Positions 18,289-30,984 of a stretch of DNA of 64,000 bases are shown here, piece after piece (position 1 is the stretch's first letter; each line of letters opens with the position of its first letter). The stretch is taken from the sequence record PZ583743.1; one strand, 5' to 3'. Under the pieces are notes generated by a model that saw only the letters and a program-made list of their open reading frames with translations, had not been told where the DNA came from and ran no database searches. A program made the position numbers and the translations under genes. This DNA is from a phage.

Positions 18289-18554
18289 TAATATTTTTCC
18301 TCTGGTTGGAACACAGCACGACAAGCCCACATACTGGCTTCTTTGAGTTTCGTTTTAGCAATAGTTAACTGATCGAGACTTTTAGCATAATTCTTCGCGA
18401 ATTCACAGTCTTCACAATTATCTAACGCTTCCCAAAATTCATCATATAAAGCATCAAAGATAAGTCCTAAACGAACTTCAGCGTCTTTGATAGCATTCAC
18501 TTTACTGATTTTATCGTCAGTATGTGGCTTATAACCTTTAATGTCTTCAATCAT
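18288..18554 (-). CDS. Hypothetical protein, 88 aa (vs-region)
   Basis: Track ORF. Confidence 0.45.
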
Positions 18555-18768
18555 ATTTTACTTCCTCACCTGTTCCCAAATCATATTCAACTAAACAAAT
18601 AGGCTCATGAATGCCATATCCTTGAACAGAAATTTCTGTCGTAGGATAAATTCCATTAATATCACCCATGTTCCACGCTTCGTTAAATTGCTGTTCGCCT
18701 GAATTACTAAACCATTCGGCGAAAGCATTTAGCACATCTTCAGAACCTTCAATAATTATCTTTGCCAT
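18547..18768 (-). CDS. Hypothetical acidic protein, 73 aa (vs-region)
   Basis: ATG at 18766-18768 overlapping the upstream stop (TAATG). Confidence 0.45.
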   Translation of the reverse strand: MAKIIIEGSEDVLNAFAEWFSNSGEQQFNEAWNMGDINGIYPTTEISVQGYGIHEPICLVEYDLGTGEEVKYD

Positions 18769-20274: not shown

Positions 20275-20577
20275 TTATTTACCTTTAATTACTTTAGCTG
20301 CTTCGATAGCCGCTTGCTGAAGGTCATCCATAGACATACCGAATTTAGAAGCAAAGTTATCAATTTTCTTTTCGACAGCATTCAAAGGCTTGGCCTGTTT
20401 ACCTTCATTAGCGCCAGGAAGAGCGAGAATACGCTCTTTGTCAATATAAAGGCTTACAAGTTTCTTACGGTCTTTATCGGACAAATCGTGAAATGAATGG
20501 GCCTTTTTATTTATAGCGGCTTCTAATTTACCTGCACTCACTCGCGCTTCAGTAATAAATTCTTGATATGTTTTCAT
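20275..20577 (-). CDS. ipII: Internal protein II
   Basis: 100 aa; capsid-targeting leader MKTYQEFITEA; size matches T4 IPII. Confidence 0.85.
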   Translation of the reverse strand: MKTYQEFITEARVSAGKLEAAINKKAHSFHDLSDKDRKKLVSLYIDKERILALPGANEGKQAKPLNAVEKKIDNFASKFGMSMDDLQQAAIEAAKVIKGK

Positions 20578-20685: not shown

Positions 20686-21267
20686 TTAAGAATTACCACG
20701 GGCTGCATTAGCAACAGCGTAAGCGTACTGAACATTAGCGTCCTTAAACGTACCTTTAGAGGTATCTATTTCTGCCTTAAAGCCGCCTTTAGCCATAACA
20801 TCAGCAAATTCTTTACGGAAGGCCATTGCATCAAGACCTTTCCATGATGATTTATGCTTGGCGAATTCAAGACCAGCGTAGTTGACAGCCTTAGCTAATT
20901 TATTATCAATAACCCATTTACCAGCTTTAGGCACAAACACCGGGCCTTTCTGTTTAGAGAATAGTTTTAAATTCCAGCGACGAAGGTCACCGTCAGCTTT
21001 AACAAAAGCTGCATCCAAGTTACTAGCAACAACATCTTGAATATGGCCAAATTTAAGCCCATCAACTTCAATATTTAGATCGGTACGCCAGCGAAGTCCT
21101 TCCCAAGCGAAAGCTTTAAAGTCGGAAGCTTTTGTAGCTAAGTATCGTTCAATAGGAGCAGTTTTAGGGTCAAAGCCGTTTCCACCACGATAGTTCCACT
21201 CATCTTTATTAATGCCTTGAGCTTTTCCTGTAAAGGCTTCGGCGATAAATTCTTTATATGTTTTCAT
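20686..21267 (-). CDS. ipIII: Internal protein III
   Basis: 193 aa; leader MKTYKEFIAEA; matches T4 IPIII as remembered. Confidence 0.85.
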   Translation of the reverse strand: MKTYKEFIAEAFTGKAQGINKDEWNYRGGNGFDPKTAPIERYLATKASDFKAFAWEGLRWRTDLNIEVDGLKFGHIQDVVASNLDAAFVKADGDLRRWNLKLFSKQKGPVFVPKAGKWVIDNKLAKAVNYAGLEFAKHKSSWKGLDAMAFRKEFADVMAKGGFKAEIDTSKGTFKDANVQYAYAVANAARGNS

Positions 21268-21297: not shown

Positions 21298-21327
21298 ATT
21301 ATACCATATTAATACTTAAGCGTAAAC
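21298..21327 (-). promoter_or_regulatory. Early-type promoter (GTTTAC, 18 nt, TATAAT) upstream of ipIII
   Basis: -35 at 21322-21327, -10 at 21298-21303. Confidence 0.5.
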
Positions 21328-21330
21328 CGT

Positions 21331-21590
21331 TTAAGCTTTACCGCCAGAAATAATTCCGAAGTTGTTAAAATCGTATCCAATATCGTCAACATCTACTTTA
21401 GGGCTTGCTGCAACATAAGCAATTTCACTATGTTTTGCATGGTGTTGATTTCTTTACCATCGCCACCTAAGAAAAAATACCCATTACGTTTTAATGAGCC
21501 AAAGTCTTCCGCATCACCAATGAAAGCTTTAACTTTAAATTTAGGACCTTTGGCATCTGCTTCAGCGATAAATTCTTGATACATTTTCAT
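21331..21590 (-). pseudogene. Internal-protein-like gene, apparently frameshifted
   Basis: 65-aa ORF 21393..21590 carries leader MKMYQEFIAEA; a second frame stays open ~23 further codons to a stop at 21331-21333. Confidence 0.4.
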
Positions 21591-21596
21591 TTTTCC

Positions 21597-22010
21597 TTAG
21601 TAAATTGATTTACCATAGTATTTGTACCAAGTAGGACGTTGAGCAATTTTTTCATCTAAGCGTGCTTGACTTATCGCAATGGACGCTTCGGACGGGACAT
21701 AATTATTACGAAATTCGGCAGGGATGTCGGAAATATCCTGGACAGTCGCGTCCTTGATTTTGAAACCACGTTTCAAGCATTCAGCGATTAGCTCGATTTG
21801 ACGTAAACGTAAAAATTCGAGTTTGTCGTAAAAGAATGTTACGTGACCTGTGCCTAAGATAAATGTTGGAGAGATTTTAAAATCCTTTACACGTTTACCG
21901 TTTTGAACATGTTTACGGACTGCACCAAATACGCGTGGTAATTCACGATACTCTGCCATAAGATGTTGGTCGGTCAGTTCAGAAACAAGTGTTAAATTGA
22001 TACGAGTCAT
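21597..22010 (-). CDS. denV: Endonuclease V (pyrimidine-dimer DNA glycosylase)
   Basis: [35 protein letters not shown] matches T4 DenV as remembered; start at ATG 22008-22010 after GGAGG. Confidence 0.9.
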
Positions 22011-22068: not shown

Positions 22069-22871
<803 letters not shown>

Positions 22872-26694: not shown

Positions 26695-27258
26695 TTATTT
26701 ATCTAGTTTAGTTATTATAGCTTCTGCGGCAGCTTTTAGCTTAGATGCGGTGTTAATACGATTTTTAATTTCAGTATACGCATCGCCAAGAACATCAAGG
26801 CTATCAGAATAAACACTTACACTATTGCGTTCGCTATTTGAAATAGAACCTTTAGTTTTACGATCAAAATCGGTGTACACGTCTTGAAGATCACGGGCTG
26901 CCTTCTTTGCATCATCCAATGCATCAAGAGCTTTATTCAAAGCATTAACGTATTTTTTAGTGTCGAACATATTCTTAGAAATTTTAACAGGTGCACGTTC
27001 AGGAGTAGCTAAGGCAGATTTAGGAACCTGAGCGCCTGATGCTAATTTCTTAGAAATTTTGAAAAATGTTTTATTGAATTTATTTTCTTGACTCATCGTA
27101 AAAGAACTATTATCGATGTTATACATTTCAATAGCTTTAGCTTTCCACTTAAGAAAATCGCCCCGGTCTTTTGGGTCCAAGTGGAAGAATACTTTAGTAA
27201 GATCTGCTTCAGATGGTAATTTTGCTGCTTCGGTTAAAAATTCGGCATAAGTTTTCAT
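26695..27258 (-). CDS. Internal-protein-like protein, 187 aa
   Basis: Leader MKTYAEFLTEA; no T4 counterpart recognised. Confidence 0.6.
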   Translation of the reverse strand: MKTYAEFLTEAAKLPSEADLTKVFFHLDPKDRGDFLKWKAKAIEMYNIDNSSFTMSQENKFNKTFFKISKKLASGAQVPKSALATPERAPVKISKNMFDTKKYVNALNKALDALDDAKKAARDLQDVYTDFDRKTKGSISNSERNSVSVYSDSLDVLGDAYTEIKNRINTASKLKAAAEAIITKLDK

Positions 27259-28045: not shown

Positions 28046-28121
28046 TGGTCGAGGCAGTAGGGATCGAACCTACGACCTAGGACTTAGAAGGTCCTTGCTC
28101 TTCCTTCTGAGCTATGCCTCG
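28046..28121 (-). tRNA. tRNA-Arg (anticodon UCU), CCA encoded
   Basis: Folds by eye: acceptor CGAGGCA/TGCCTCG, loop CTTCTAA, T-arm GTAGG-TTCGATC-CCTAC. Confidence 0.85.
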
Positions 28122-28125
28122 GATT

Positions 28126-28200
28126 TGGCGGACGTGATAGGATTCGAACCTATAACCAATCGCTTAACAGGCGATCGCTCTGCCATTGAGCTACACATCC
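28126..28200 (-). tRNA. tRNA-Asn (anticodon GUU), CCA encoded
   Basis: Acceptor GGATGTG/CACGTCC, loop CTGTTAA, T-arm ATAGG-TTCGAAT-CCTAT. Confidence 0.8.
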
Positions 28201-28204
28201 AAAT

Positions 28205-28291
28205 TGGTGGGGAGTGGTGGAGTCGAACCACCCGAGTCGCAATGACAATGGATTTACAGTCCACACCGCTACCTCTACGGGATAACTCCCC
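28205..28291 (-). tRNA. tRNA-Tyr (anticodon GUA), class II long variable arm, CCA encoded
   Basis: 87 nt; loop CTGTAAA identical to E. coli tRNA-Tyr; T-arm GGTGG-TTCGACT-CCACC. Confidence 0.8.
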
Positions 28292-28300
28292 AAATTAATT

Positions 28301-28375
28301 TGGTGGCCCTGGGTGGAATTGAACCACCATCTGGCGATTATGAGTCGCTTGCTTGAACCTTCCAGCTACAGGGCC
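28301..28375 (-). tRNA. tRNA with CAU anticodon (Ile2-lysidine type or Met), CCA encoded
   Basis: Acceptor GGCCCTG/CAGGGCC, loop CTCATAA; sits at the T4 tRNA-Ile position. Confidence 0.8.
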
Positions 28376-28376
28376 T

Positions 28377-28452
28377 TGGTGCTGATTGACGGAATCGAAC
28401 CGCCGACCTTCTCATTACAAGTGAGTTGCTCTACCTACTGAGCTAAATCAGC
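28377..28452 (-). tRNA. tRNA-Thr (anticodon UGU), CCA encoded
   Basis: Acceptor GCTGATT/AATCAGC, loop CTTGTAA. Confidence 0.85.
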
Positions 28453-28457
28453 AAAAC

Positions 28458-28547
28458 TGGCGGAGGCGATAGGATTTGAACCTATGAGTCGCCGGAGCGA
28501 CTGCCGGTTTTCAAGACCGGTGCATTAAACCACTCTGCCACGCCTCC
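28458..28547 (-). tRNA. tRNA-Ser (anticodon UGA), long variable arm, CCA encoded
   Basis: 90 nt; loop CTTGAAA; T-arm ATAGG-TTCAAAT-CCTAT. Confidence 0.85.
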
Positions 28548-28549
28548 AG

Positions 28550-28623
28550 TCTCCATACAAGGATTTGAACCTTGGACCTCCTGATCCCAAATCAGGCGCT
28601 CTACCAAACTGAGCTACACGGAG
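28550..28623 (-). tRNA. tRNA-Pro (anticodon UGG), CCA not encoded
   Basis: Acceptor CTCCGTG/TATGGAG, loop TTTGGGA; 3' end abuts tRNA-Ser (dimeric precursor arrangement). Confidence 0.8.
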
Positions 28624-28633
28624 TAAATTAAAT

Positions 28634-28707
<74 letters not shown>

Positions 28708-28712
28708 AAATT

Positions 28713-28799
28713 TGGTGCGAGAAGTGGGACTCGAACCCACAAGGAAATCATTCCGCAGCATTTTAAGTGCTGTGCCTTTACCAATTTGACCATTCTCGC
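28713..28799 (-). tRNA. tRNA-Leu (anticodon UAA), long variable arm, CCA encoded
   Basis: 87 nt; acceptor GCGAGAA/TTCTCGC, loop CTTAAAA. Confidence 0.85.
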
Positions 28800-28800
28800 G

Positions 28801-28873
28801 CTGGGAATAAAGGACTCGAACCTTTGCATCCTGGAATCAAAATCCAGTGCCTTACCAACTTGGCTAATTCCCA
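28801..28873 (-). tRNA. tRNA-Gln (anticodon UUG), CCA not encoded
   Basis: Acceptor TGGGAAT/ATTCCCA, loop TTTTGAT; 3' end one nt from tRNA-Leu (dimeric precursor arrangement). Confidence 0.8.
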
Positions 28874-29927: not shown

Positions 29928-30215
29928 TTACAAAAGATTTTTAGCAATAATCTTGAGATGTGCCGCAGAAATGTGTTTAGCTTTAAACAACGCAGTTTCT
30001 TCAGCAGGAGAGATAATGATTGTAGCACCATCCTTTTTAGCAGACCACCCATCACCTAGGTAAACAGTACCTTTGATTTCTTCGCCATCAACCAAACTAA
30101 TCATTGGTTTACCTTCTCGTCCTTTATTTGCTTTAATAACTTCAGAAGTAAGAGTAGCTTCAGTAATAGTAGAAACCGGGGTAGTTGTAGAAGTAAATTC
30201 TTTGAAAGTTTTCAT
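29928..30215 (-). CDS. ipI: Internal protein I
   Basis: 95 aa; C-terminal ...KHISAAHLKIIAKNLL and core MIKANKGREGKPMISLVDGEEIKG match T4 IPI as remembered; leader region diverged. Confidence 0.85.
   Translation of the reverse strand: MKTFKEFTSTTTPVSTITEATLTSEVIKANKGREGKPMISLVDGEEIKGTVYLGDGWSAKKDGATIIISPAEETALFKAKHISAAHLKIIAKNLL

Positions 30216-30287: not shown

Positions 30288-30984
<697 letters not shown>

Follow-up and report, generated by a model that had tools for sequence, protein, structure and literature searches.

In a Mosigvirus (RB69-like T-even) phage, the small accessory gene between denV and ipIII lacks a single T after codon 50, and the resulting 65-aa ORF is very probably a recent, lineage-specific frameshift pseudogene (a truncated allele) of a non-essential RB69 ORF125c orthologue that resembles an internal head protein. 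The window analysed here is the whole 64,000-nt stretch of sequence record PZ583743.1, and its best GenBank matches are 95–98% identical over 24 kb. On the minus strand, nudE is followed by e (lysozyme), a 93-aa ORF with a capsid targeting sequence (CTS) leader, denV, the truncated ORF, ipIII, and ipII, and the truncated ORF begins 7 nt after the denV stop codon. The features are listed below.

20275–20577, minus strand: ipII homologue, 100 aa, intact (PF26874)
20686–21267, minus strand: ipIII homologue, 193 aa, intact (PF26861)
21298–21326, minus strand: predicted sigma-70-like promoter (TTTACG, 17-nt spacer, TATAAT, with TG; 10/12 consensus positions)
21331–21440, minus strand: remains of codons 51–86 (the conserved C-terminal coding region) and the original TAA, out of frame and with no start codon of their own
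21393–21590, minus strand: truncated ORF, residues 1–50 orthologous to RB69 ORF125c (phrog_2667, E 2.2e-11)
21431, minus strand: G-to-A substitution linked to the deletion, ten bases downstream of it (CGT to CAT in the old frame)
21440–21441, minus strand: junction of the 1-nt deletion; in alignments, relatives read AACACCTATGCAAAAC and the window AACACC-ATGCAAAAC
21561–21590, minus strand: CTS, codons 1–10 (MKMYQEFIAE, followed by A11), cleavage predicted after E10
21594–21598, minus strand: Shine-Dalgarno-like AAGGA, overlapping the denV stop codon (21599–21597)
21597–22010, minus strand: denV (endonuclease V, PF03013), immediately upstream and probably co-transcribed
22069–22350, minus strand: CTS-leader ORF, 93 aa, intact, in the position of RB69 ORF127c (phrog_3499, internal head protein)
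26695–27258, minus strand: 187-aa ORF, intact, with a perfect CTS-type leader (MKTYAEFLTEA); no Pfam family in the metagenome annotation
29928–30215: ipI-like ORF with a CTS leader, intact

Six ORFs in the window, including the truncated one, carry a CTS leader, and the other five are intact. The 187-aa ORF probably encodes another uncharacterised internal protein. Since the predicted promoter lies between the original stop codon and ipIII, expression of ipIII should not depend on the broken gene. Elsewhere in the window, a cluster of 10 tRNA genes (Arg, Asn, Tyr, Met, Thr, Ser, Pro, Gly, Leu, and Gln) occupies 28046–28873 on the minus strand, as in the T4 tRNA region. Candidate neighbouring genes with the Pfam families Acb1 (~30288–30743, minus strand) and Acb2/Tad1-hairpin (~18289–18555, minus strand), which are anti-CBASS/anti-Thoeris families, were positioned by correspondence with the precomputed annotation of a near-identical contig (L016). 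A gene for a Y06M-like membrane protein (PF26896; 23309–23797, minus strand) is intact at 162 aa in the window and in contigs L007, L017, and L019; it is split into 30 and 122 aa in L006/L016 and L020 and is 102 aa in L018, making it a second polymorphic pseudogene of the lineage. At position 21749 in denV, the window carries its own substitution, differing from all six related assemblies.

The frame-0 ORF runs on the minus strand from ATG at 21590 to TAG at 21395–21393 and comprises 65 codons plus the stop, with the translation MKMYQEFIAEADAKGPKFKVKAFIGDAEDFGSLKRNGYFFLGGDGKEINTMQNIVKLLMLQQALK. These coordinates are the same as those of the 65-aa leader-bearing ORF in the original prediction. 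The −1 frame is open on the minus strand from 21453 to TAA at 21333–21331 (40 codons) and reads RNQHHAKHSEIAYVAASPKVDVDDIGYDFNNFGIISGGKA. No ATG, GTG, or TTG occurs in this frame between 21453 and 21331, which rules out separate expression of the C-terminal fragment. A second frame that reaches 21331 without a start codon had thus been described correctly, but it extends ~20 codons past the frame-0 stop, not ~23. Both frames are open over 61 nt (21453–21393, minus strand), and the run CAAAAC at 21436–21433 lies inside this overlap. The frames do overlap near an A-rich run, as predicted; the lesion itself, however, lies outside the run, 4 nt upstream. A 40-codon open frame arising by chance in AT-rich DNA would be only mildly unlikely (~5%, a rough estimate), and the second frame is recognised as a genuine coding remnant by homology, because it encodes the conserved C-terminus of an 86-aa protein that is intact in ~200 phages. 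It contains AKHSEIAYVAASPKVDVDDIGYDFNNFGIISGGKA, SEIAYVAASPK, and VDVDDIGYDFNNFGIISGGK, and residues 51–65 of the window product (MQNIVKLLMLQQALK) are out-of-frame junk. The AAGGA is spaced 3 nt from the ATG at 21590 and 9 nt from a second ATG at 21584. Start choice varies: the RB69 record uses the first ATG, while the second is taken as the start in several other records and in the metagenome gene calls. An ATG directly after the frame-0 TAG (21390–21395, minus strand) opens a 27-codon ORF (21392–21309) that is probably meaningless. In one metagenomic allele (P0022), Gln stands in place of this TAG, and the product reads through the 27-codon stretch to give 91 aa.

The lesion is one T missing between 21441 and 21440 on the minus strand (ACC(T)ATGCAAAAC). 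The missing base would lie between C and A, outside any homopolymer and upstream of CAAAAC. Base-by-base alignment across the deletion was carried out with three phage records, and ~200 records align across the locus at 95–98.5% identity with one extra base and a continuous ORF. The relatives that contain the T encode one continuous 86-aa protein (...GKEINTYAKRSEIAYVATSPKVDVDDIGYDFNNFGIISGGKA). Because orthologues of 87 aa are intact in Gaprivervirus VR7 and Gelderlandvirus S16, the comparison identifies the deletion as the derived state and the intact ORF as ancestral. The event is recent, because the downstream frame is still stop-free and nearly unchanged. The Arg that the linked G-to-A substitution at 21431 would replace is invariant in the four intact orthologues aligned, which represent three genera. 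Compared with the 181 matching GenBank phage records, the window still has at least three differences in 82 nt from the closest. These results bear out the suggestion of a recent frameshift pseudogene. Related phages encode the full-length product, and the contrary pattern, in which they would encode the same short protein with no conservation of the downstream frame, was not found: in relatives with the short protein the downstream frame is identical to that of the window, and in all the others it is conserved as coding sequence.

The ORF is intact at 86 or 87 aa in ~200 related phage genomes, including RB69 and two other genera. In RB69, the type phage, ORF125c is intact at 86 aa and annotated from the first ATG. 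By tblastn, 218 phage records contain the protein. A sample of 60, spread over the ranking of these matches, comprised 53 with a single uninterrupted full-length match and seven with a broken, deleted, or partial allele. The orthologues of VR7 (VR7ORF127c, whose annotation notes similarity to RB69 ORF125c) and S16 (gp70.1) are 87 aa long with 63–70% identity. A profile search of 1.84 billion protein representatives added four distant homologues of 94–194 aa, all with a CTS-like leader and the same C-terminal motif. Between genera, dN/dS was 0.15–0.26 for codons 51 to the end and similar, 0.09–0.19, for the N-terminal part. These ratios, together with conservation across genera, indicate that the C-terminal third of the intact orthologues is under purifying selection and that the part lost in the window is constrained coding sequence.

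In PHROG, both the intact orthologue (E 6e-20) and the window ORF (E 2.2e-11) match phrog_2667, named 'internal head protein', and the window gene shares with the phrog_2667/ORF125c group its synteny downstream of denV. However, group members are full-length proteins of 86–87 aa with the motif EIAYV..PKVD..D..DF..FG..GGK, whereas the window product departs from them after residue 50 and ends at residue 65, with the motif left only out of frame. In this family the window gene thus counts as a broken allele and not as a functional member. Pfam scans of the intact orthologue and distant family members, and NCBIfam, gave no family for the protein, and a PDB sequence search yielded no meaningful match (best E-value 0.13). 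The family profile A3 matched one WG-repeat protein (P0033; E 1.7e-4, profile positions 22–74), which is no more than a weak lead. In the central motif, KRNGYxFxGGDGKEIxTYAKR, there is a weak resemblance to the WG-containing beta repeat WG_beta_rep (PF14903), for which the Pfam scans of family members were negative. AlphaFold2 models of the intact orthologues, built on a four-sequence alignment, were too poor to show what the truncation removes (pLDDT 52, pTM 0.45). T4 has no orthologue; the sole matching record named Tequatrovirus, most likely OZ035756.1, matches the Mosigvirus sequence of the window.

In T4 IPIII, the first 10 residues are enough for entry into the prohead core; in this leader, targeting depends on residues 4 and 7 and cleavage by gp21 on residues 8 and 10, and the gp21 protease cuts after L/I-x-E (PMC9026906; PMC3012670). 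The leader of the window ORF is of this type (~10 residues like MKTYQEFIAE), with Y4 and F7 at the targeting determinants and I8-A9-E10 as a gp21 prohead-protease site at its end, and the gene is located in the variable ip neighbourhood of a T-even genome. By analogy with T4 IPI–IPIII, the CTS leader suggests the most likely fate of the intact protein: entry into the prohead core, gp21 cleavage behind E10, and transport in the head together with the DNA. The designation as a putative internal head protein derives from the leader, the gene neighbourhood, and PHROG naming. In literature searches on ORF125c, Ip10, and Mosigvirus virion proteomics, we found no report of virion proteomics or expression for the family.

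The same gene is broken repeatedly in other phages. Besides the window allele, at least eight frameshift or deletion alleles have arisen independently, giving at least nine distinct alleles in all. FL44 and Pu-Krd-SF2 carry +AA after AAATC, and UFV13 carries −TT. In 172859UKE1 (L015, 307–417), a 144-nt in-frame deletion between the near-identical repeats GGTCCTAAA and AGTCCTAAA leaves 38 aa, namely the CTS and the last 23 residues; this product corresponds to a separate PHROG family, phrog_35655. TU01 and pEK20 gave the same 114-nt tblastn match as 172859UKE1. Among the metagenomic alleles, P0017, P0020, P0021, and P0022 are frameshifts, P0023 has a 21-codon in-frame deletion, and P0032 (54 aa) joins DenV residues 1–30 in frame to the C-terminal 24 residues of an ORF125c-family protein. 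The last implies deletion of most of denV and most of the ORF125c-family gene in some phage. The search for short alleles favours breaks in the middle of the gene, which makes their apparent clustering uninformative. The pattern of breakage fits a dispensable gene under intermittent selection.

Whether the missing base could be a sequencing or assembly error in the source genome was considered, as single-base indels are the commonest assembly artefact. All 181 matching GenBank phage records lack the deletion, and the 21-mer across it had no matches in IMG/VR or in the JGI metagenomes; two matches in GTDB MAGs were due to chance, with no flanking similarity. An exact look-up of the 65-aa product also returned no match, because gene callers start at the second ATG. 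The ipIII product of the window was found on metagenome and SRA-derived contigs, and on all those shown the neighbouring gene was called as 63 aa. This 63-aa product, initiated at the second ATG (P0016), is present on eight contigs from at least six independent samples (ERZ19289331, SRR26926504, SRR22222717, SRR28999511, SRR16279930, and SRR36495837) that came through two pipelines, ENA and Logan. Four of these loci were aligned and have the same missing T, the same G-to-A substitution at 21431, and full identity over 300 nt across the gene. The contigs are 97.2–99.9% identical to the window over 9–20 kb (995 bases for L021), that is, they differ from it elsewhere by 0.1–2.8%. They also differ in gene content; in L018, for example, a Tudor-like gene is added and the DUF7438 array differs. 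Between 20000 and 23000, however, they differ from the window at only 1–3 sites. The same deletion, outside a homopolymer, in independent and otherwise differing contigs indicates a real, inherited allele that circulates in several genomic backgrounds on a haplotype block they have in common. A sequencing error, one of the explanations first offered, is thereby rejected and retains hardly any probability.

A slippery site had also been proposed, through which −1 ribosomal frameshifting or transcriptional slippage within 21453–21393 would restore the full-length protein at some frequency. The 61-nt overlap does contain two weak one-tRNA sites, A_AAC (21434) and A_AAG followed by TAG (21398–21393), and low-level P-site slippage of tRNA-Lys is conceivable at an A_AAG directly before TAG. 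However, the overlap lacks a slippery heptamer X_XXY_YYZ. The sole classic heptamer, T_TTT_TTC, lies outside it at 21476, where a −1 shift would run into the −1 frame stop at 21456–21454 downstream. The RNA from 21460 to 21330 is no more stable than shuffled sequences (MFE −20.8 kcal/mol versus a shuffle mean of −22.0; z = 0.35), and a run of four As is too short for transcriptional slippage. The two-frame layout is absent among relatives, which have a single continuous ORF where the same sequences are ordinary coding, and the other broken alleles break elsewhere and in other directions (+2, −2, and −1). Recoding is thus unsupported and extremely improbable. A less remote, though still unlikely, explanation is that the truncation is not neutral decay: loss of the C-terminus may be advantageous, or the CTS with ~40 residues may keep a function. 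The position of the allele on a nearly invariant 3-kb block common to genomes that differ by up to 2.8% elsewhere would agree with this, as would the eight or more other disruptions and a published view (PMC3012670) that T-even internal proteins contend with the restriction systems of their hosts in an arms race. On the other hand, 53 of the 60 sampled records are full-length, the gene is under purifying selection, the mid-gene bias of the short-allele search deprives the clustering of weight, and neutral decay of a dispensable gene also predicts recurrent breakage. We know of no defence system targeting the ORF125c-family protein. In one form of this explanation, which we regard as unlikely, carrying the injected protein intact has a cost on some hosts, as when a host defence senses it, and the frameshift is an adaptive escape. 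The N-terminal fragment may have a residual or altered function, given its persistence in several genomic backgrounds.

Under the preferred reading of a recent frameshift pseudogene, one T was lost after codon 50 in this phage lineage. Translation would then shift frame, add 15 unrelated residues, and stop at 21393, and the conserved 36-residue C-terminus would remain unmade because its frame has neither a start codon nor a recoding signal. The expected product of 65 aa (55 aa after leader removal) would keep the leader and 40 mature residues and could still reach the head. Because a third of the conserved domain is missing, this product is most likely a non-functional fragment, possibly still packaged. 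Its loss would be tolerated because the gene is accessory, with five other intact CTS-leader genes in the window. The ip region of T-even phages has long been known as variable, and ordinary decay of one dispensable accessory gene matters little by itself. The appropriate annotation of the locus is a disrupted RB69 ORF125c orthologue and not a 63- or 65-aa hypothetical protein. A small CTS-leader gene that is conserved in at least three genera is nevertheless broken in ~10% of the sampled genomes by many independent lesions, and these recurrent lesions provide a convenient natural knock-out series for finding the role of the protein.

T4 IPI–IPIII are CTS-targeted, processed by gp21, and injected with the DNA, and IPI* has an anti-restriction role against GmrS/GmrD. 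The window gene is like those of T4 IPI, IPII, and IPIII in its MKTYQEFIAE-type leader, with aromatic residues at positions 4 and 7 and I-x-E at 8–10, and in being a small gene among ip genes; unlike them, it shows no similarity to T4 IPI–IPIII beyond the leader. T-even internal proteins are described as a diverse and poorly conserved accessory set (PMC3012670; PMC9026906), so that tolerance of losing one of them is no surprise. Like RB69 ORF125c, VR7ORF127c, and S16 gp70.1, the window gene occupies the locus directly downstream of denV. Its nucleotide identity with the Mosigvirus orthologues is 95–98.5%, and the leader and first 50 residues are identical; in contrast to the RB69 ORF125c group, it is one T short after codon 50, giving 65 instead of 86 aa and the loss of the 36 C-terminal residues. 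The other decayed alleles (FL44, Pu-Krd-SF2, UFV13, the 38-aa phrog_35655 product, P0017, P0020–P0023, and P0032) are, like that of the window, independent disruptions, and all are recent, since what remains of each has diverged little from intact relatives. Their lesions differ from the −T of the window, being +AA, −TT, other frameshifts, in-frame deletions of 21 or 48 codons, or a fusion with denV.
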